From: Parcubacteria group bacterium Gr01-1014_30
GTDB lineage: Bacteria; Patescibacteriota; Minisyncoccia; Minisyncoccales; 2-12-FULL-40-12
DNA length: 64,000 bases
NCBI GenBank assembly: GCA_007376185.1
Contig: VMFS01000003.1
Coordinates: forward strand, 25,983 to 89,982
Direction: 5' to 3'
Below the pieces are notes generated by a model. The model was not told where the DNA came from. It did no database searches and was given only the letters and a program-made list of their open reading frames with translations. How positions within the stretch are numbered: position 1 is the first letter of the stretch; the number at the start of each line of letters is the position of its first letter. The translations under genes were made by a program, and so were the position numbers. Shown in pieces: positions 1-53,173 of this stretch.

Positions 1-2145
1 TATTTCCCATTTGTTTCGGGCAGGGTTTATCTTTTCAGATTATTGGTGGTTTTGGCTTTTTTCTTCTGGATATGGCATCTGACAAAAGTTACAAGTTACA
101 AGTTACAAGTTACAAGAAGTATACTGGTTGTCGCTTTGATTCTGTTCTTTCTGGCGCAGATTTTGGTTTCTTTTTTTGGGGTTGACCCTCTTTTTTCTTT
201 TTTCTCTTCCATATCAAGGTCTGACGGCGTTTTTCAGTATGGTTTTTGGATTTTATATCTTTTGATGCTGATTTTTGTGTTCAAAGAAGACAAGGACTGG
301 AAAATTCTTTTTTCCGTTTTTACAGTTGTCGCCTTTATTATGTCTCTTTTTGCCTGGCTGGGGTTTCCGCCAGAGCAAGAAATATACGGCAACCTTTTCG
401 GCAACCCAGCTTATTTTTCCGGATTTTTGATCTTTGCCATAGGTTTTTCTTTACTGACTTTCGAGAGGAAGTTTTTCAGTAACCCTCTTTTGAACAATTT
501 ATTTTTGGTCCTGTCTGTCTTTTTTGCCGTTACCTTGGTTTTTACTAAAATTAGGGGAGCTTTTATTGGTCTGGCCGGCGGAATTTTTCTTTTTTGCGCT
601 TTGTCAGCCGTATTTTTAAGAAGGGAGAGAGAAAACAGAAAATTAGCTCTTTTTTGCGGAATTGCTTTATTGGCAGGAGTTGTTTCCCTGCTACTTCTTT
701 TTTCTGCCAGAGAAACAGAGTTTGTTAAAAATAATGTTTATTTATCCCGCGTAGCAAGCATTGCCGAGTTTCGTGCCGCAGATTCTCCCATAGAGCGTTT
801 TTTGGTGTGGAACGTTGCGTTAAAGGCCTTTTTGGAAAAACCTCTGCTGGGCTGGGGTCCTGAAAACTTTGCTTCAGCTTTCAATAAATACTACGACCTG
901 CGAGTAGGCGAGCGAGAAACCTGGTTTGACAGGGCGCACAACGTTCCTCTAGACATTTTGGCAACAGGAGGAGTTTTCCTTTTTGCCTTTTACCTATTTT
1001 GGATTTTCGCCGTCCTTTTTTTGATTCTCAAGATAGCTTCAAAAGTAAAGATTCTGTCTTTTATTTTGGGTTCGGTATTTTTTGCCTATTTTCTGCAAGG
1101 GCTTTTCTTTTTTGACACTTTTGCCAACTCTCTGGGCCTTTTCCCGTTCTTGGCATATCTTGTGTACTTAAATCCGAAATCCGAAACTCTAAATCCTAAA
1201 CAAATTCAAAATTCAAAATTCAAAATTCAAAATTTTATTTTAGTTGTTGCGGCGGTTTTTTCTGCTTTTCTAATTTACGCAACAGTTATAATGCCTTGGA
1301 AAGCCAATGCCGCGGCGCTGAATTTTTACACTCACACCGAGGCAGAGCTCTATAAAGAATCTAAGCCCTTTTTGAAAAAGGCATTTGTCATAAAGTCGCC
1401 CTACACGTATTGGGAAGTGAGAAGAGAGTTGGCTTGGCAGTTCTTGAGAATTTTGGAAGATAGGGTCAAAGAGGGAATGCCGTCTGAAGACCTTCAGGCA
1501 ATAAAGGAAACTTATGATTTAATAACTCCGGAACTTGAAAGGTTTATTATAGCGAAACCACAGGAGCCCCAGATGTATTATGTTTTGGGGAGAATTTATC
1601 TGGCAGGTTTTGAAAAGTTACATAGAGATGACCTTGGCAAGGCAGAGACAATCCTTAAAAAGGCGCTTAACTATTCTGATTTAAGACAGGAATATTTTCA
1701 GGAACTAAAGCGGGCTTTAGTTTTGCAGGGCAAGTTTGACGAAGCCGAAATTTTATTACAAGGATATGTTCAAAGAGTGGATTTTTACGATTACTACCCT
1801 TTCTTGACTATGGGGCATTTTTACTTTGACGTTGAAAGATACCAGCAGGCACAGGAACAGTATGAGAAGGCAAGAGAAGTTGGCTACGATTTTTGCCGAG
1901 TTGGAGCCGAGTACAGTCGTTATATGTTTTCAGCGGAGCAGGCGGGAAATTACCAAAAAGTCGTTGAAATGGGGCAGGAATGTTTGCAAAAAAGGGGACC
2001 TGACGCAGCCACTTACTTTAACGTTGCCGTAGGTTTCTTTCATCTAGGAGAAAAAGAAAAAGCAAGGGAGTTTTTCTTGAAGGCATTTGAACTGGATCCC
2101 AAAGAGTACGAGCAGTATCGTGAAATCTTTGCCCCCACACCATAA
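1..2145 (+). CDS. O-antigen ligase/polymerase-like (Wzy_C-type) polytopic membrane protein with C-terminal TPR domain; 5' partial
   Basis: The frame is open from nt 1, so the TTG at 43 is not the true start. N-terminal YFPFVSGRVYLFRLL aligns to YFFPFVAPKTIFFRLI of the paralog at 48290-50461. Many TM helices. Ligase-type loop WGPENF...FDRAHNVPLDILATGG. C-terminal TPR-like repeats (GHFYFDVERYQQAQEQYEKA, AVGFFHLGEKEKAREFFLKAFELDP). Confidence 0.75.
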   Translation, partial: YFPFVSGRVYLFRLLVVLAFFFWIWHLTKVTSYKLQVTRSILVVALILFFLAQILVSFFGVDPLFSFFSSISRSDGVFQYGFWILYLLMLIFVFKEDKDWKILFSVFTVVAFIMSLFAWLGFPPEQEIYGNLFGNPAYFSGFLIFAIGFSLLTFERKFFSNPLLNNLFLVLSVFFAVTLVFTKIRGAFIGLAGGIFLFCALSAVFLRRERENRKLALFCGIALLAGVVSLLLLFSARETEFVKNNVYLSRVASIAEFRAADSPIERFLVWNVALKAFLEKPLLGWGPENFASAFNKYYDLRVGERETWFDRAHNVPLDILATGGVFLFAFYLFWIFAVLFLILKIASKVKILSFILGSVFFAYFLQGLFFFDTFANSLGLFPFLAYLVYLNPKSETLNPKQIQNSKFKIQNFILVVAAVFSAFLIYATVIMPWKANAAALNFYTHTEAELYKESKPFLKKAFVIKSPYTYWEVRRELAWQFLRILEDRVKEGMPSEDLQAIKETYDLITPELERFIIAKPQEPQMYYVLGRIYLAGFEKLHRDDLGKAETILKKALNYSDLRQEYFQELKRALVLQGKFDEAEILLQGYVQRVDFYDYYPFLTMGHFYFDVERYQQAQEQYEKAREVGYDFCRVGAEYSRYMFSAEQAGNYQKVVEMGQECLQKRGPDAATYFNVAVGFFHLGEKEKAREFFLKAFELDPKEYEQYREIFAPTP
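88..118 (+). repeat. Heptanucleotide tandem repeat (acaagtt x3 perfect plus partial units) inside a CDS
   Basis: Read directly: aaagtt acaagtt acaagtt acaagtt acaagaa. Encodes KVTSYKLQVTRS. Confidence 0.8.
1170..1232 (+). repeat. Array of nine 7-nt units (aaatccg x2, aaactct, aaatcct, aaacaaa, ttcaaaa x4) inside a CDS
   Basis: Read directly. 63 nt = 21 codons, encoding LNPKSETLNPKQIQNSKFKIQNF in a loop between TM helices. Confidence 0.8.
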
Positions 2146-2245: not shown

Positions 2246-3943
2246 ATGTTGGCCAAAACAGCCAAACTTGTATACTTTTTTGCAGTTTCAGCTTTTCTAT
2301 TGCTGCCGGTTTTTGGTTTTGCGCAAACGGTTTCTTTTAACGTTGACCCTGCCTACGATTTGTTGAGCAGGACGCAAATTGAAGCTGAACTCGTCAGGAC
2401 AACGCAAAATCTGTATTTCTACATTGAAAAGAGTTGGTGGAACAACCTCGCGTCTCAAGAACAGAATAACATAAGGATAGTTCTCTTTGAGTTGGGTGAA
2501 GAATTTACGGGGAGAATATATCCTGTTTTGACGACAACCTTTGGGCAAGAACCCAAGCCGGGAATTGACCGAGACGAGAAAATAACGATTTTAATACACC
2601 AAATGCGTCAAGACGCCGGCGGTTACTTTAATTCTGGCGATGCCTATTCGCGCCTTCAAGCGCCAAGGTCCAACGAAAGAGAAATGGTTTATTTGTCAGC
2701 CAACCGTGTTACCAGCCCCAACTTGAAAAGTTTTCTAGCTCACGAATTTGTCCATTTGATCACAATTAACCAAAAGGATTTGCTCCGCAGGGTAACTGAA
2801 GAAATATGGCTGAATGAAGCCAGAGCCGAGCTGGCTCCCACGTTGCTTGGTTATGACGAAATTTTCCAGGGGAGCAACCTTGAAGCAAGGATGATAGCTT
2901 TTTTGGAGAAACCTACTTTGTCTTTAACCGAATGGCTAAATTTAAAATATGACTACGGCGCCGTAAACTTATTTGCCCAGTACATAGTTGACCATTACGG
3001 CACCAAAATCTTGGTTGACTCTCTTCAATCTTCCAAAATCGGCATTGCTTCCTTGGAAGAGGCATTGTTGCGCCAGGGCGTATCAAAGACGTTTGCTCAA
3101 CTTTTTTCGGACTGGGCGATAACTCTCTTGCTTAACGATTGTTCTGTGGGTCAGAGATATTGTTATCTGAATCAGCATTTAAAAAACTTGAAAATTGTGC
3201 CAACCATTTATTTTCTCCCGAGGACGGAAACAACAATATCAACCGTTCACGGGAGCACCTTTTGGTCTTTGAACTGGCATAGGCTTGTGGGAGGGGAAGG
3301 TCAACTCTCTTTGGAATTTGAAGGCAACAGCGCAGTTTCATTTGAAGTTCCTTTGGCTCTCTGCGACAGACAAAACCTTTGTTCCATAACATTCTTGGCT
3401 TTGGACTCTCAAGAAAAGGGCCGGCTCCAGCTCGCTGACTTTAGCCAAAAATACAATTCTCTTACCATACTTCCTTTCGTTAAAAGCAAGACCGAAGGGT
3501 TTGACGGCGAGCAGAGAAGTTTTTCTTTTTCTTGGAAAACCAGCGTCGGGCAAGGAGCCCAGACAGAAGCAGAATTGAGAAACCAGCTTCTCTCGAGAGT
3601 CGCCCAACTCCGGGCGCAGCTTGCACAACTACAAGCTCAGTTATCGGCGCTCTTTAACGGCCAGCCCTTACCTGGCGCAGTTTCTTGTACTCAGCTTAAC
3701 AACAACTTATACTTTGGCGTAAGAAACAGCCAGGAAGTTCGTTGTCTTCAGGAATTCTTAAAAACTGAAGGCGTTTATCCGGAAGGCCTGGTTACGGGTA
3801 ACTTTCTTTCTTTGACGAGGACTGCTGTAATTCGCTTTCAAGAGAAATACGCTTCGGAAATTTTAACTCCGTTTGGTCTGCAACAGGGAACTGGATATGT
3901 AGGGCAGGCAACTAGAGCAAAGCTAAACCAGTTGCTTCAGTAA
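2246..3943 (+). CDS. Secreted HEXXH metallopeptidase-like protein with coiled coil and C-terminal peptidoglycan-binding-like domain
   Basis: Signal-peptide-like N-terminus (FFAVSAFLLLPVFGFAQT). LAHEFVHLI (HEXXH). AQLRAQLAQLQAQLSAL coiled coil. C-terminal VRCLQEFLKTEGVYPEGLVTGNFLSLTRTAVIRFQ resembles PG_binding_1. Confidence 0.55.
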   Translation: MLAKTAKLVYFFAVSAFLLLPVFGFAQTVSFNVDPAYDLLSRTQIEAELVRTTQNLYFYIEKSWWNNLASQEQNNIRIVLFELGEEFTGRIYPVLTTTFGQEPKPGIDRDEKITILIHQMRQDAGGYFNSGDAYSRLQAPRSNEREMVYLSANRVTSPNLKSFLAHEFVHLITINQKDLLRRVTEEIWLNEARAELAPTLLGYDEIFQGSNLEARMIAFLEKPTLSLTEWLNLKYDYGAVNLFAQYIVDHYGTKILVDSLQSSKIGIASLEEALLRQGVSKTFAQLFSDWAITLLLNDCSVGQRYCYLNQHLKNLKIVPTIYFLPRTETTISTVHGSTFWSLNWHRLVGGEGQLSLEFEGNSAVSFEVPLALCDRQNLCSITFLALDSQEKGRLQLADFSQKYNSLTILPFVKSKTEGFDGEQRSFSFSWKTSVGQGAQTEAELRNQLLSRVAQLRAQLAQLQAQLSALFNGQPLPGAVSCTQLNNNLYFGVRNSQEVRCLQEFLKTEGVYPEGLVTGNFLSLTRTAVIRFQEKYASEILTPFGLQQGTGYVGQATRAKLNQLLQ

Positions 3944-3948
3944 CCGTG

Positions 3949-4073
3949 AGGAATCTGGAATCTTGAATTTAGAGTCTTGAACGAGAATACAGCATAAAAG
4001 AATAAAGGATCTTCTTGTATTCTATATTCTAAATTCCAATTCTAGATTCAAGATTCTGTATTCTCCATTCTGG
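3949..4073. repeat. Imperfect palindrome built from 7-nt periodic units (NNNgaat... / attcNNN...)
   Basis: Left arm: gaggaat ctggaat cttgaat ttagagt cttgaac gagaata. Right arm: tattcta tattcta aattcca attctag attcaag attctgt attctcc attctgg. Lies downstream of the 2246-3943 stop, so it is a possible terminator. Confidence 0.7.
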
Positions 4074-48309: not shown

Positions 48310-50461
48310 AGAAAAATTAGAGAGAATATGTCTTACCATTATTGAGTGGGGTGTTTATTTGGCCTTGTTTTCGCCTTTGATTTTTATCAGGAATTATTTT
48401 TTCCCTTTTGTTGCCCCCAAGACGATTTTTTTCCGTCTCATTATTGACGTTGTTTTCATTGCCTACCTGATATTGGCGGTTTCAATTCCAAAATATCGCC
48501 CTAAAATAACTCCCTTGTCTTTGGCAATCGCCGCCTTTTTAGCGATATTCTTTTTAACCGCAATTTTCGGAGTGAGCTTTCAGAGGAGTTTTTGGAGCGT
48601 TTTTGAAAGAATGACCGGACTTTTAACCTTCTTGCACCTTTTCGCTTTTTACGTTGTTTTGACGGCAGTTTTTACAGAAAGAAAGCAGTGGGAAAAGATT
48701 TTATTTGTTTCAATCGTAGCAGCCCTTGTTATTTGTTTTTACGCTTTGCTCGCAAAAGACCCTTTGACTCGCGGCGGAGGGACTTTGGGCAACTCGTCTT
48801 TTCTTTCCTCTTACCTTCTTTTTAACATCTTCTTTGCCGCAATTTTGATGGTGTCAAAAGCCGGCCTCTGGAGAGTTGTTTCAGGGGTGGCTCTGGCTAT
48901 TTTCTTGTTTGTTTTGTTCTTTAACCCGGTTACCGTTACCAAGGGAGTTGTTTCTGCCCTTCTCATAGGAGCGGTTTTGCTTGGAACAGGATATATGTTT
49001 TTTTCGCAAAACAGACTTCTGAAAAAACTGGCTGCACCCTTTTTTATTTTGATGGTTGTCGCGGGAGTACTTATCGTCAAGAGTTACCATTTTCAAGACA
49101 GACCTTTTAATTTATTGCAAATTCCCGACAGGTCACGGCAAATTGTCTGGAGTGTTGGTTGGCAGGCCTGGCAGGAAAGGTTTTGGTTTGGCTGGGGTTG
49201 GGAAAACTTCAACGTTCCCTTCGCCAAACACTACGACCCCGAACTTCCCCGGACCGCCGACATCTGGTACGACCGAGTTCACAACGTTGTCTTGGACATG
49301 GGTGTAAGTTCTGGAGTTGTTGGACTGTTAAGTTATTTATCAATCTTTTTCTTTGCTGCTTTAGGGTTGTTAAGACGCGCCAAAGCTGATGCCAGAGGCA
49401 ACTTTGTTCCGTTGGCTCTGGTTGCCTTACTTATTGCTTATTTTCTGCAAAACCTTTGGGTTTTTGACATGATTTCAAGCTACCTAATGTTTTTCTTAGC
49501 GCTGGCTTTCATAGGTTTTATGATTTCTTCTCAGGAAACAGACCAAACCAAGCTCAAAACTGTTCCGCTGTCGCCGTTTGTCGCGGCTGTTCTAATAATT
49601 TTGACTGTATTTGTTTTTTTTATCGGGAATATTCAGCCAGCCAGAGCTTCAAAAGCAATTCTAAGGGGGCTTGCCTTGCCTTTGGAGCAGTCCCTGCCCG
49701 CTTTTCAGAGCGCGTTTAAATTATCTCCGATGGTGAAGTTTGAAGGGCCCGAACAACTATCTTTTAGAATTACTGGCTTACTTTCTCAAGACAATCTAAA
49801 TAAAGAGCTGCTTCGCCAAGGGCTCCAGCTGGCAGAGCAAGAATTTAAAAAAGCTATTGAAAGGAACCCTTCAGACTTCAGAATGTATTTATTTTTGGGC
49901 AGGCATTACAATTATTTTTACTCTTTTGACAACGACCAAAAAAAGTTGGACAAAGCCGATGAATCTTTGATGAGAGCTATGGAGTTGAGCCCCGCAAACC
50001 AGCAGGTCTATCTTAACTTCGCGCAATTGCGGTTTTTGCAGGGCAGGGATGAGGAAGCCCTTGATTTTTTGAAAAAAGCAAGGGATTTAGAACCCCTATT
50101 TTTCGGAGTCAGATGGCACTTGCTTCGCGGTTACAAACTGGCCGGAAAATACGACTTGGCCTTAGCCGAGTTAAAAGAATTAGAGTTAGCTGGCCTTGAT
50201 TGGTGGGAGATCTTGGAAACTTTGAGAGAAGGCATAGAAATTCTTGAAAAAACTGGAGAGGAGCTTTCAGTTTTGGTTCCGCTTTACGAAAAAGGCGTCC
50301 AACTGAACCCTCAAGACATCGCTTTGTGGGAGAAGTTGGTTAATGGCTATATTGGTCTGGGCGAAGTAGAAAAGGCGAAAACAGCTGCGGAAAAATTGCG
50401 CGAGATAAGACCGGAATTTGCGCCTCAAGTTGAACAGCTCTTGAAACAGATGGGGTTTTAG
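48290..50461 (+). CDS. O-antigen ligase/polymerase-like membrane protein with C-terminal TPR domain (paralog of 1-2145)
   Basis: WGWENFNVPFAKHYDP...YDRVHNVVLDMGVSSG. TPR-like C-terminus (FLGRHYNYFYSFDNDQKKLDKADESLMRAMELSP etc.). ATG at 48290. Confidence 0.75.
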   Translation: MPFSPTKEKLERICLTIIEWGVYLALFSPLIFIRNYFFPFVAPKTIFFRLIIDVVFIAYLILAVSIPKYRPKITPLSLAIAAFLAIFFLTAIFGVSFQRSFWSVFERMTGLLTFLHLFAFYVVLTAVFTERKQWEKILFVSIVAALVICFYALLAKDPLTRGGGTLGNSSFLSSYLLFNIFFAAILMVSKAGLWRVVSGVALAIFLFVLFFNPVTVTKGVVSALLIGAVLLGTGYMFFSQNRLLKKLAAPFFILMVVAGVLIVKSYHFQDRPFNLLQIPDRSRQIVWSVGWQAWQERFWFGWGWENFNVPFAKHYDPELPRTADIWYDRVHNVVLDMGVSSGVVGLLSYLSIFFFAALGLLRRAKADARGNFVPLALVALLIAYFLQNLWVFDMISSYLMFFLALAFIGFMISSQETDQTKLKTVPLSPFVAAVLIILTVFVFFIGNIQPARASKAILRGLALPLEQSLPAFQSAFKLSPMVKFEGPEQLSFRITGLLSQDNLNKELLRQGLQLAEQEFKKAIERNPSDFRMYLFLGRHYNYFYSFDNDQKKLDKADESLMRAMELSPANQQVYLNFAQLRFLQGRDEEALDFLKKARDLEPLFFGVRWHLLRGYKLAGKYDLALAELKELELAGLDWWEILETLREGIEILEKTGEELSVLVPLYEKGVQLNPQDIALWEKLVNGYIGLGEVEKAKTAAEKLREIRPEFAPQVEQLLKQMGF

Positions 50462-50471
50462 AAAATACTTG

Positions 50472-50779
50472 ACCCCGCCCTTGAAAAGCTCCTCTTCTTT
50501 CTGTATGCACTACGTCTATGTTTTGAGAATGAACAACAAAAGAGCATATATTGGTTTCACCACTGACCTTAGAAAAAGAGTTCAAGAACATAAAACAGGC
50601 AAAGTATTTACAACTAGCAAATATCTCCCAGTTCGTCTTGTCTACTACGAATGCTACCTATCTAGGGATGATGCAGAAAGAAGAGAAAGAATGCTCAAAC
50701 GATATGGCAGCACGTGGTCTCATTTGATGCGGAGAATAACAAAAAGTTTCAGAGTATAAGAGCTTTTCAAGGGCGGGGT
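50472..50779. mobile_element. GIY-YIG gene cassette bracketed by a perfect 20-bp inverted repeat
   Basis: accccgcccttgaaaagctc at 50472-50491. Its exact reverse complement gagcttttcaagggcggggt is at 50760-50779. Confidence 0.65.
50505..50759 (+). CDS. Small GIY-YIG nuclease family protein (COG2827/UPF0213-like)
   Basis: MHYVYVLRMNNKRAYIGFTTDLRKRVQEHKTGK...LVYYECYLSRDDAERRERMLK. Confidence 0.75.
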   Translation: MHYVYVLRMNNKRAYIGFTTDLRKRVQEHKTGKVFTTSKYLPVRLVYYECYLSRDDAERRERMLKRYGSTWSHLMRRITKSFRV

Positions 50780-50807
50780 TGACAAATTCATTTCTTTTTG
50801 CTAAGCT
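50779..50807 (+). promoter_or_regulatory. Sigma70-like promoter TTGACA-17-TAAGCT
   Basis: TTGACA at 50779-50784 overlaps the outer edge of the right inverted repeat. TAAGCT at 50802-50807. Confidence 0.35.
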
Positions 50808-50813
50808 ACTATA

Positions 50814-50971
50814 GTGAGTGCCCCCGTCCTCTAGGCTGTTTATTATCTTTTTTAGACAATCAGTCACTCAGAAACAAGAATGATTTATGAGGACATTATA
50901 TACGGCATAGAGGGCGGGGAACTTCGCTAAGTCGACGACAGGCTTTCCTCGAGCAAAGCCTGTCGTTTTTT
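50814..50971 (+). ncRNA. Candidate ~160-nt non-coding transcript (promoter to intrinsic terminator, no real ORF)
   Basis: Long-range stem ccccgtcctcta (50822-50833) with tagagggcgggg (50908-50919), with one G-U pair. Ends in terminator cgacaggcttt-cctcgagc-aaagcctgtcg-tttttt (50935-50971). The only ORF is a 16-codon micro-ORF. Confidence 0.35.
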
Positions 50972-51105
50972 ATTGAGATATGAGGACTTCATATTTTGAG
51001 AGGCAAAATGAGTATATTTACATCCCTGATTTAAGAACCTATGCCAACGCATAAACTCACCCCACTCTGCTACTCACTATATTTATACCCACTGCCCACT
51101 GGCTA

Positions 51106-51185
51106 TTGACAGCTTATGAGGGTTTGCTATACTGACAATGTGATGACACTCTGGAGTATCCGCAAGGATAGCTCCAGATTTTTTA
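51106..51185 (+). promoter_or_regulatory. Near-consensus promoter (TTGACA-16-TATACT) followed within ~20 nt by a terminator hairpin
   Basis: TTGACA at 51106-51111. TATACT at 51128-51133. Hairpin ctggagtatcc-gcaa-ggatagctccag at 51151-51177, then tttttt. Confidence 0.4.
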
Positions 51186-51219
51186 TTTCTGGCTTATTTC
51201 AGCTTTGAGCTTGCGTAAA

Positions 51220-51654
51220 TCAATGAATTTGGCTCATAATCCGCTTGCCTGCTTTCTTTATTCGGTCAATCGGCACAGCAAAATCACTGTCTCCTGACGA
51301 AAGTACTGCTGTATCATATTTCTCTTTTGTGTCATCCATTTCAAAAGCAAGCTCCATATCCAAATTACCTTTCCACTCCTCTTTGCCGCTTTTTCGGTCT
51401 TTAATCCTTTTTACTACTTTTGTCCTCAAGATATAGCCGTTTATCTCAAGCATATCTAAAAATTTCCTCTGTCCCGTATTGAATTCGTCCACGCCTTTGT
51501 AGATAAAACACTTCGTCTCATCGCCACACTCTTTTTTAAGGTAGCTCATCAGTTTTTGATACGATATTTTCCAACCCAAAGTTCGCTGGGAATAAAATAC
51601 ATTTTCGGCGTCTATAAAAACATAAACCCTGTCTTTCACAAATTGGTGTAGCAT
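51220..51654 (-). CDS. NYN/LabA-like (PIN-related) domain protein
   Basis: VYVFIDAENVFYS...KGNLDMELAFEM...AVLSSGDSDFAVPIDRIKKAGKR. Confidence 0.7.
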   Translation of the reverse strand: MLHQFVKDRVYVFIDAENVFYSQRTLGWKISYQKLMSYLKKECGDETKCFIYKGVDEFNTGQRKFLDMLEINGYILRTKVVKRIKDRKSGKEEWKGNLDMELAFEMDDTKEKYDTAVLSSGDSDFAVPIDRIKKAGKRIMSQIH

Positions 51655-51690
51655 AGAACTATTTTTTACTTTATCAGATTTTCGTAATTT

Positions 51691-51948
51691 TTGTCACCTA
51701 TTTTCTTGCAAGACAGATTAAAGTTATCAATCCACCCCGACAAAATCTTCATTAAAACTTTAGCTTCCGGCGTTGACTTCTTGGGCTGGGTTCATTTCCC
51801 GGACCACAGAGTTTTAAGAACAACGACAAAGAGGAGGATGTTCAGAAGAATACAGAAATCACCAGCTCAAGAAACTATAAACTCATACCTTGGCTTAATT
51901 AGATGGGGTAATGCTTGCAAGCTGCGAAATAGAATCTTAGCCGATTAA
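51691..51948 (+). pseudogene. C-terminal remnant of a reverse transcriptase (DGR/retron/group II-like thumb region)
   Basis: FLQDRLKLSIHPDKIFIKTLASGVDFLGWVHF...RRMFRRI...INSYLGLIRWGNACKLRNRIL. No palm (YxDD) region is encoded upstream. Confidence 0.55.
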
Positions 51949-52039
51949 ACCCATTTATTTTTCCCAAGTTTCTGATATAGTATGGTTGGGCGACAGGCAG
52001 CACTCACTAAAGACTTAGTATTGGAGTTAACTCTGTCGC

Positions 52040-52205
52040 CCATTTGTGGTAATACAACTTTCAGAAGACGAAGCCAACTTTCGTCTCCGGAAGTGGTACA
52101 ACCACGTTCCTTGTAAAGATTGGTGCGGGGCAAGCGGGGAAACCTGTGGGTTTCTAGGTCGGGAGTTTCCGCTCCGCGGAAAACTCTCGCGACCCGACCG
52201 ACCCC
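52040..52205 (+). repeat. Cluster of degenerate palindromic modules in the murB leader
   Basis: ggtaatacaactttcag...ccggaagtggtacaacc resembles the Y-repeat. Also gaaacc-tgtg-ggtttc. Nested hairpin ggtcggg-[agtttccgc tcc gcggaaaact]-ctcgcga-cccgacc. Confidence 0.45.
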
Positions 52206-52213
52206 CTTCCGAT

Positions 52214-53173
52214 ATGGCGCTTTTGTTCAAAAAGAAAGTTTTACTAAAAAACCACACCACTTTTCGCATCGGCGGGCCGGCCAAGTGTTTTTACGAAGCG
52301 AAAACGGCAAAACATTTGATTGCCGCCTTGAGAAAAGCCAGAGAGTTGAAGTTGCCTTTTTTTGTTTTGGGTGAAGGCAGCAACCTTTTGGTTTCCGACA
52401 AGGGCTTTAACGGTTTGGTTGTTAAGATTCAAGATTCAAGATTCAAGATTCAAGATTCTTATCTTTGGGCGGCATCGGGCGTTTCTCTTTCAACTTTGGT
52501 GAGAGAAACCGGAAAACGAGGCCTTTCCGGCCTTGAGTGGGCTGGCGGTTTGCCAGGAACCTTTGGCGGAGCTGTTTTTGGGAACGCCGGCGCTTTTGGC
52601 GGAGAAACCAAAGACAATATTATTTGGGTTGAGGCCTTGGACCCCCACACCAATTTTGGTATGGGGGCGAGCAAAAACCTTAAAGTGAAGCGGTTTACTA
52701 AAGCGCAGTGCAAGTTTGGGTACAGAACTTCAATTTTTAAGGAGCGGGGATGGCTTGTGCTGTCTGCGTTGCTTTCGCTCAAAAGAGGAGACAAAAAGGC
52801 AATTCAAGGCGTAGCTTTAGCTCACATAAAACAGCGGAAAGAAAGGGGCCCTCTGGAATATCCCAACGCAGGCAGTATTTTTAAGAACTGCAAGGTGACT
52901 GGCGTGCCAAAAAAAGTTGCGGGAATGTTTAAAGGAGTTATAAAAGAAGACCCGTTTCCGGTTATTCCAACGGCCGCCATTATAGCCAAAACTCCGGGCC
53001 TAATGGGAATTAAAATAGGCGGAGCCCAAGTTTCCAAGAAGCATCCAAATTTCATCATAAACACTGGCGGAGCTAAAGCGATTGACGTGTTGTCGCTGAT
53101 AAACTTGGTGAAAAGAAAAGTGAAAAAAAGTTTCGGGGTGGACATAGCAGAAGAAATACGCTATATTGAGTAA
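52214..53173 (+). CDS. murB: UDP-N-acetylenolpyruvoylglucosamine reductase
   Basis: LLKNHTTFRIGGPAKCFYEAKT...LPFFVLGEGSNLLVSDKGFNG...FGYRTSIF...GSIFKN. The start was set at the ATG at 52214; the upstream extension is non-coding repeat DNA. Confidence 0.85.
   Translation: MALLFKKKVLLKNHTTFRIGGPAKCFYEAKTAKHLIAALRKARELKLPFFVLGEGSNLLVSDKGFNGLVVKIQDSRFKIQDSYLWAASGVSLSTLVRETGKRGLSGLEWAGGLPGTFGGAVFGNAGAFGGETKDNIIWVEALDPHTNFGMGASKNLKVKRFTKAQCKFGYRTSIFKERGWLVLSALLSLKRGDKKAIQGVALAHIKQRKERGPLEYPNAGSIFKNCKVTGVPKKVAGMFKGVIKEDPFPVIPTAAIIAKTPGLMGIKIGGAQVSKKHPNFIINTGGAKAIDVLSLINLVKRKVKKSFGVDIAEEIRYIE
52424..52458 (+). repeat. Perfect heptanucleotide tandem repeat (aagattc x5) inside murB
   Basis: Read directly. 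Encodes KIQDSRFKIQDS. Confidence 0.85.
52642..52667 (+). repeat. 26-nt palindrome inside murB sharing the cccccacacca arm with the 2132-2206 hairpin
   Basis: cccccacacc-aatttt-ggtatggggg. Encodes DPHTNFGMGA. Confidence 0.55.

Follow-up and report, generated by a model that had tools for sequence, protein, structure and literature searches.

A perfect heptanucleotide array in murB of a Parcubacteria bacterium and its counterparts at the same site in related lineages

To our knowledge, non-triplet microsatellites are generally held to be short-lived and to be avoided in essential coding sequence except as switches. Such switches include the simple sequence repeat (SSR) contingency loci, e.g., the tetranucleotide tracts of Haemophilus influenzae lic and mod, in which a non-triplet repeat within an open reading frame (ORF) encodes a peptide repeat read in three frames and gain or loss of a single unit produces a null allele. 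Tandem heptanucleotides are found in the short tandemly repeated repetitive (STRR) elements of heterocystous cyanobacteria. STRR1-3 have the units CCCCAGT, TTGGTCA, and CAACAGT, and STRRs are mostly non-coding. Vioque reportedly described STRR heptanucleotide repeats inside the essential RNase P RNA gene of cyanobacteria in 1997. Two further systems are relevant, namely the concerted evolution of rDNA arrays and of minisatellite-encoded protein repeats, and the Rickettsia palindromic elements (RPEs), which are selfish short in-frame sequences in housekeeping genes. The gene hmw1A is controlled by 7-bp repeats and is an intragenic example of SSR contingency (PMC8262952). A general survey of prokaryotic coding SSRs (PMC3315296) treats those that cause frameshifts chiefly in the context of phase variation and of the ends of proteins. 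The subject here is a heptanucleotide array, (AAGATTC)5, inside murB of Parcubacteria group bacterium Gr01-1014_30. It was analyzed within a stretch of 64,000 nucleotides of contig VMFS01000003.1, referred to below as the window. Literature searches returned no description of heptamer repeats in Patescibacteria or the candidate phyla radiation (CPR), nor of non-triplet microsatellites conserved in the coding sequence of essential genes. Coding SSRs are already known; what appears to be new is a non-triplet microsatellite that evolves in concert at a frozen length and is conserved at a single position in an essential enzyme.

The array consists of five perfect head-to-tail units (Tandem Repeats Finder (TRF): period 7, 5.0 copies, 100% matches, score 70), in agreement with the first-pass annotation of the window. 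The adjoining heptads, ggttgtt and ttatctt, do not prolong it. A 21-nt probe of three AAGATTC units matched the window six times at up to three mismatches compared to 0.01 times expected from shuffles, and recovered the murB array and three related arrays of the window. The murB array is real and far beyond chance, and its head-to-tail units fall within the 1 to 9 nt of a simple sequence repeat. The first array base is the first base of codon K71 of MurB. The codons read AAG ATT CAA GAT TCA AGA TTC AAG ATT CAA GAT TC|t, giving K I Q D S R F K I Q D S, i.e., KIQDSRFKIQDS, and the first-pass annotation had the same peptide. The unit length of 7 is not divisible by 3, so that each set of three units (21 nt) is read in all three frames and gives the 7-residue period K-I-Q-D-S-R-F.

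The ORF around the array was identified as murB. It matched the Pfam domains FAD_binding_4 and MurB_C with 68.5 and 89.4 bits, respectively, and it resembled solved MurB structures (best PDB match 4pyt, E 4.5e-43). The AlphaFold model had a predicted local distance difference test score (pLDDT) of 86.6 and a predicted template modeling score (pTM) of 0.81. A longer ORF starting with GTG at 52046 is probably not translated because the homologues begin near MxxFKK. No second murB was detectable within the 64-kb window. The gene is called essential here from general knowledge of murB.

The same site was compared in related murB genes. A scan of GTDB species representatives gave 80 murB loci. The close ones were all Patescibacteria/Parcubacteria metagenome-assembled genomes (MAGs) and the nearest was a Wildermuthbacteria MAG with 61% identity. 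Further DNA from closer relatives was obtained via the protein database, and a protein-seeded metagenome scan gave 10 loci, including L091 (loci are labeled L### and proteins P####). The DNA homologous to aa 69-84 was extracted and the period-7 autocorrelation was calculated in a sliding 35-nt window over each whole gene. It was at least 0.68 in 11/80 GTDB murB genes, always with the peak at query aa 69-75, and at most 0.61 in the remainder. In the relatives, each array opens with the K71 codon, which is preceded by L-V-[V/I], and occupies five slots (35 nt). The MurB proteins concerned are 41 to 75% identical to that of the window. At this shared site the heptamer unit differs by lineage (Table 1), and the peptides include KIQNSKFKIQNS, KIQNTKYKIQN, and KIQDTRYKIQG. 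For 70/118 homologues, a single heptamer in five copies accounted for eight or more of the 11 codons, compared to 2/1080 control windows from the same proteins. More distant MurBs, which are those of the "VLKPEINF..." type, those of Acidiferrales, and the solved structures, have the same length here and an unrelated sequence, which is aperiodic in the first two. The array is conserved at one site across a large part of the Parcubacteria. The first-pass annotation had taken it for part of an invasive sequence family, a view that was at odds with a peptide repeat shared among orthologues. Other Parcubacteria lineages (41 to 75% identity) do share this repeat, and it is heptamer-periodic at the DNA level too. 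A GANTC-type methylation site (GATTC occurs five times at 7-bp spacing) was rejected as the cause of the array, as the orthologous arrays of AAAATTC, AAAATAC, AAACTAC, and other units do not contain GATTC.

Table 1. Features of the window, with position and strand, followed by the contents of the array slots of murB at the shared site in the window and in related loci.
Feature or locus	Position	Strand	Description
(AAGTTAC)x4.4, perfect	86-116	+	Encodes KVTSYKLQVTRS between two hydrophobic segments (loop), gene 43-2145
Degenerate TAAATCC-type units then (AAATTCA)x4.7	1169-1234	+	Encodes LNPKSETLNPKQIQNSKFKIQN in variable linker, gene 43-2145
Inverted degenerate heptamer arrays (GAATNNN / NNNATTC)	3951-4063	.	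Intergenic, long imperfect hairpin
NYN-domain gene	51220-51654	-	
85-aa ORF	51691-51948	+	Just upstream of the murB leader
Conserved hairpin motif, ~57 nt	51989-52042	+	Directly upstream of murB
GC-rich stretch, ~170 nt	52043-52213		Between hairpin motif and murB ATG
murB (UDP-N-acetylenolpyruvoylglucosamine reductase)	52214-53173	+	319 aa from ATG 52214; homologue starts, Pfam, PDB matches
Beta-meander of FAD-binding domain, codons 65-87	52406-52474	+	AlphaFold model, conservation
(AAGATTC)x5	52424-52458	+	Perfect in-frame heptanucleotide array, MurB codons 71-82
Near-perfect palindrome, 26 nt	52642-52667		Underlies aa 144-153 of MurB
Window			(AAGATTC)5
L084/85/86			(AAAATTC)5, perfect, in three samples
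L083			AAAATTC x5, one mismatch
L073			AAAATGC then (AAAATAC)4
L062			(AAGATAC)4 then AGGGTAC
L003			(AAACTAC)4
L091			AAAATTC then (GAAATTC)4
L102			AAAATAC TAAATAC TAAATAC CAAATAC TAAATAC
L101			AAAATTG AAAATTG TAAATTA AAAATTG AAAATTT
L074			AAGCTAA AAGCTAA AAGCTAT AAGCTAA AAGCTAA
L081, L088, L087, L082, L090, L002, L008, L104			Degenerate array versions

By alignment the murB array contributes no extra residues and would encode a beta-hairpin of normal length. In HMMER alignments to MurBs of the PDB, vvkiqdsrfkiqdsylwaasg was paired with VIKLGAGLDHMEIDGEQVTVGGG, and the sole gaps were of one to two positions and in the query. A MAFFT alignment with 20 homologues (55 to 77% identical in that alignment) was gap-free across the array in typical sequences, and the distance between the flanking anchors was identical in 88/105 parsed homologues. 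The AlphaFold model has strands at residues 65-72, 77-80, and 83-87 with a pLDDT of 94-95 in this block. By this model the array codes for the last part of strand 1 and for strand 2, each followed by a turn. None of residues 72-85 was invariant in the alignment of 20 homologues, in which K71 was nearly so, and the hydrophobic positions I/L72, F/Y77, and I/L79 were conserved among homologues. These hydrophobic residues are taken to face inward.

A recent invasion of murB, in which a mobile or self-propagating heptamer array belonging to an invasive family inserted into the gene, was considered highly improbable. Such an event would fit the presence of arrays of related units (AAAWTNC) at numerous unrelated loci, among them murB-adjacent spacers of relatives and two other sites of the window, and it would fit locus L077, which has the array when the loci closest to it with the hairpin set aside lack one. 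However, the site holds no extra residues, no terminal repeats or target duplications are present, and conserved codons of the ordinary kind flank the array. Lineages down to 41% identity have site, phase, and slot number in common. The word AAGATTC itself is not dispersed beyond chance; 17 non-array copies were found in the window compared to 15.7 expected, and a dispersed family of this word was rejected. For murB the invasion reading is largely refuted.

The window MurB does have extra residues. These are aa 144-153 (PHTNFGMGAS), which were absent from 20/20 homologues and had a pLDDT below 50. The alignment proposed in the first-pass annotation for finding the extra residues of the array found none in the array, which was ruled out as their origin. 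They stem from a separate palindrome (CCCCCACACCAA tt TTGGTATGGGGG; insertion 52643-52672), of which no other copy was found in the window at up to three mismatches. Residues 144-153 are a lineage-specific in-frame 10-aa insertion with the look of a palindromic mini-insertion of the RPE type, here within an essential gene. RPEs are the model implied by the first-pass annotation for the array. The array differs from them in being gap-free against orthologues, without added residues, and not palindromic; it is the palindrome of the same MurB that fits.

Insertions of another kind were seen at the array site of several lineages. MurBs of these lineages carry in-frame GC-rich insertions of +6 to +18 aa directly after slot 4 (L004, L027, L090 = P0008, P0037, P0046, P0064, P0070, P0083, P0110). 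Inverted repeats were present in two of the four insertions checked. That of L004 (2226-2254) is perfect (CCCCGCACC/GGTGCGGGG) and that of L027 (2214-2255) has 13-nt arms which are 77% complementary. None was found in the slot-4 insertions of L090 and L043. A second kind of element thus appears to have its hotspot at the tip of the hairpin.

Within each lineage the array copies were more alike than expected. The mean difference between units of an array was 1.41 per 7 nt compared to 2.74 ± 0.06 under a permutation null in which slots were shuffled among lineages and the slot index was kept (0/5000 permutations reached the observed value). The sisters L062 and L074, with a Kimura distance of 0.21 outside the hairpin, are distinguished by unit positions 4 and 7 in each slot where the unit is retained and have only sporadic differences in the flanks. 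Unit positions 2 (A) and 5 (T) were invariant across the observed units, and the T of position 5 falls in the middle of the I/L codons 72 and 79 and opens the F/Y codon 77. In L091, slot 1 stays AAAATTC, which keeps K71, and slots 2-5 are GAAATTC.

Unit identity was also broken at slots in which the unit would have introduced an in-frame stop. The unit AAGCTAA of L074 would place TAA at codon 7, and the sole mismatch of that array turns TAA into TAT. In L101 the unit AAAATTG would yield TGA at codon 5 and TGT is present instead; a homologue subgroup with a patch of the L101 type reads KIENCKLKIEN. L102 has T in slots 2, 3, and 5, and A and C in slots 1 and 4, respectively, the sole slots where T would begin a TAA codon. 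These exceptions look like selection overriding the repeat process at exactly the lethal slots. The pattern of L102 suggests that variants spread slot by slot. Had the array instead collapsed and re-expanded as a whole, the lethal T would have been copied too.

The resemblance of the units might in principle be due to the protein. If the hairpin needed a pseudo-symmetric peptide of the K-I-x-N-S-K-F-K-I-x-N type, AT-biased codons could mimic repeats, and the conservation of I/L72, F/Y77, I/L79, and K71 is consistent with such convergence. However, each successive unit is read in another frame, so that peptide selection cannot make the units identical, and a unit change alters three residues at once and does so in every slot. 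Units containing stops fill all slots but the lethal ones. Heptamer-encodable peptides were a property of this site and not of the control windows (70/118 compared to 2/1080), and the distant MurBs, including the solved structures, accommodate an unrelated sequence of equal length. Convergence at the protein level is extremely improbable. The murB array is similar to the classic cases of concerted evolution in that the paralogous copies of one lineage resemble each other more than they do their orthologues in other lineages. It differs in that the classic cases have triplet-multiple or non-coding units and a copy number that varies by unequal exchange, whereas the murB array is frozen at 35 nt with each copy in another frame.

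The array is probably a resident, vertically inherited coding microsatellite at a fixed five-slot, 35-nt site, which is homogenized, filtered by selection, and without a switch function. A DNA-level process would keep the slots alike within each lineage. Purifying selection would hold the frame, the slot number, K71, and the inward-facing hydrophobic residues, and would block unit variants at just the slots where they create stops. The favored homogenizing process is a length-neutral, short-patch copying between neighboring units. The nascent strand would misalign by one unit during replication or repair, a short patch would be copied or corrected, and the strands would realign. Templated mutagenesis of this dislocation type is established from Kunkel-type studies. 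Rare in-frame slippage by three units may add to the homogenization. The frameshift load from one-unit changes at five copies would be too small to purge the array. The array itself would reflect a heptamer-biased, repeat-generating tendency general to Parcubacteria genomes.

Several points weigh against this explanation. A neighbor-joining (NJ) tree of the murB loci was built with the hairpin masked and with 50 bootstraps. One clade contained the window, L081-L090, L001-L004, L008, and L013, plus the array-less L005, L007, and L014. Further groups were L073 with L043 and L062 with L074. The array-bearing L077 was placed among array-less "KPEINF" sequences and joined the main clade in 0/50 bootstraps. 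Array-bearing MurBs are found in at least three to four NJ clades, interleaved with array-less ones, and an old array with losses and a repeated conversion of the site may fit these data alike. The nearest relative of the window MurB is only 75% identical. An exact search of metagenome contigs with the 5' flank plus two units gave 0 matches and no second copy of the allele. The permutation test (1.41 compared to 2.74) ignores phylogenetic non-independence, and the lineages are related. The homogenizing mechanism is deduced from its end products, and the explanation gives no reason for a period of 7.

The first-pass annotation described the tract as frameshift-prone and doubted that it was a dedicated phase-variation switch. 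Both statements held, the former in principle. Simulated arrays of 3, 4, 6, and 7 copies truncated MurB at aa 94-110 (aa 94 or 110 for 4 or 6 copies), and 2 and 8 copies were in frame. Like the SSR contingency loci, the array lies inside an ORF and has a unit length not divisible by 3. If gain or loss of one unit by slipped-strand mispairing toggled murB, wall-less or dormant subpopulations would arise. A perfect array is the most slippage-prone state. However, no frameshift was found at the site in the 91 murB loci of the first data set, each of which gave one continuous tblastn segment across it. The slot number was five in ~25 array-bearing lineages, and the length variants seen were all in frame. 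Locus L103 has eight slots, i.e., +21 nt or three units. The same perfect (AAAATTC)5 is carried by three independent P0016 assemblies (L084/85/86), and one identical degenerate array is carried by ten P0105 assemblies. Many lineages have degenerate, non-slippery arrays with no sign of compensation. The murB array has only five copies, and known switches, such as the H. influenzae and Neisseria loci, use longer tracts. Contingency loci are typically long 5' tracts in dispensable surface, restriction-modification, or host-interaction genes, whereas this short tract of fixed length lies mid-gene, at codons 71-82 in a folded strand of the core of a housekeeping enzyme, away from the N-terminus and with no second copy of the gene in the window. 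A role as a switch is very unlikely.

Heptamer arrays were not confined to murB. TRF was run on 464 kb, comprising 100 Parcubacteria loci and the window, with second-order Markov shuffles as the null. It found 39 period-7 arrays compared to 0.2 expected (~200-fold), of which about half are the murB site itself owing to the sampling of loci, and 30 period-14 arrays compared to 4.7. No other period exceeded ~14 arrays, and 64 kb of Acidiferrales loci contained no period-7 or period-14 arrays. Of the invasive sequence family of the first-pass annotation, the family survives as this wider class, and the invasion does not as regards murB. The kinship that it drew between the murB unit and two other sites of the window was borne out. 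The unit AAATTCA of gene 43-2145 rotates to AAAATTC, which is one base from AAGATTC, and the intergenic inverted repeat contains GAATCTT (3958-3964) and AAGATTC (4050-4056). Gene 43-2145 encodes a Wzy_C/TPR-like membrane protein with a linker ~4 aa longer than in paralogues and orthologues; its perfect (AAATTCA)x4.7 (1202-1234) reads QIQNSKFKIQN. The inverted repeat has arms of 52 nt that are 71% complementary and an RNA fold of -38.8 kcal/mol (z -4.5; 0/200 shuffles reached this stability). Situated downstream of ORF 2246-3943, the inverted repeat may serve as a terminator or as a regulatory hairpin composed of heptamer units.

Period-7 arrays were also present in the spacers before or after murB in L081, L087, L009, L006, L012, L032, and L073. 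Arrays abutting murB were seen in L081 (67-142 and 1057-1083), L089 (~175-260), L087 (3923-3951), and L009 (2923-2998). In L087 the stop codon of murB marks the start of an (AAATTAC)4 array. In relatives the annotated murB start is overlapped by about ten AAATTCC/AAATTCA units, translated as N-terminal extensions by gene callers, which probably over-extend ORFs through heptamer arrays.

An excess of this kind might come from active, heptamer-specific "writing" across the genome, i.e., synthesis or repair linked to a polymerase, primase, or reverse transcriptase, for which the murB hairpin is a tolerated and repeatedly rewritten target. The enrichment of ~200-fold is specific to period 7 and its double, 14, and similar A-rich unit families are found at unrelated loci. 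Independent origins at the same murB site are possible, and homogenization is fast relative to flank divergence. Against this, no enzyme or motif was linked to the arrays and ordinary misalignment mutagenesis could suffice. A reverse-transcriptase-like fragment upstream of murB has no Pfam match and no demonstrated link to the arrays. Writing is judged quite unlikely as the source of the murB array. It is unlikely that an active, heptamer-specific process in Parcubacteria writes and re-homogenizes arrays genome-wide and has repeatedly overwritten the same 35 nt of murB. If it were true, repeat dynamics would set the sequence of a folded protein segment, and selection would do no more than screen the outcome, with stops patched and K71 and the hydrophobic positions retained.

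The heptamer excess found here in 464 kb resembles the cyanobacterial STRRs, which likewise show a genome-wide excess of tandem 7-nt repeats. In both cases arrays are tolerated in a dispensable part of an essential gene and differ between lineages. The units are not those of STRR1-3, however, and the hosts are not heterocystous cyanobacteria; AAGATTC, AAAATTC, and similar units are found here in Parcubacteria/Patescibacteria MAGs, and the murB array is translated and constrained in length and frame.

The region upstream of murB was also inspected. A conserved hairpin motif lies directly before the gene and was found in at least 15 further lineages (L004, L013, L043, L081-L091, L094, L096, and L103). 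Its inner ~30 nt are almost invariant (AGCACUCACUAAAGACUUAGUAUUGGAGU) and its outer stem covaries, with RNAalifold predicting 19 pairs, eight of them with compensatory double changes. Rfam gave no match to the motif at E ≤0.01 and none in 50400-52400. The motif is a candidate for an undescribed leader or small RNA. The GC-rich stretch that follows it is palindrome-rich by eye and looks like inserted material because the ATG of relatives follows the motif within ~10 to 60 nt. The 85-aa ORF before the motif resembles by eye the C-terminal part of a reverse transcriptase of the group II intron/retron type (..GVDFLGW..). The NYN-domain gene beside it is on the opposite strand.

For annotation, these results are a warning that heptamer arrays in patescibacterial genes are not by default insertions, pseudogene scars, or phase switches. 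The murB site is a natural system in which mutation-driven homogenization and codon-by-codon selection can both be read directly. The period-7 bias in Parcubacteria parallels the heptamers of the cyanobacterial STRRs and may point to a shared property of replication or repair.

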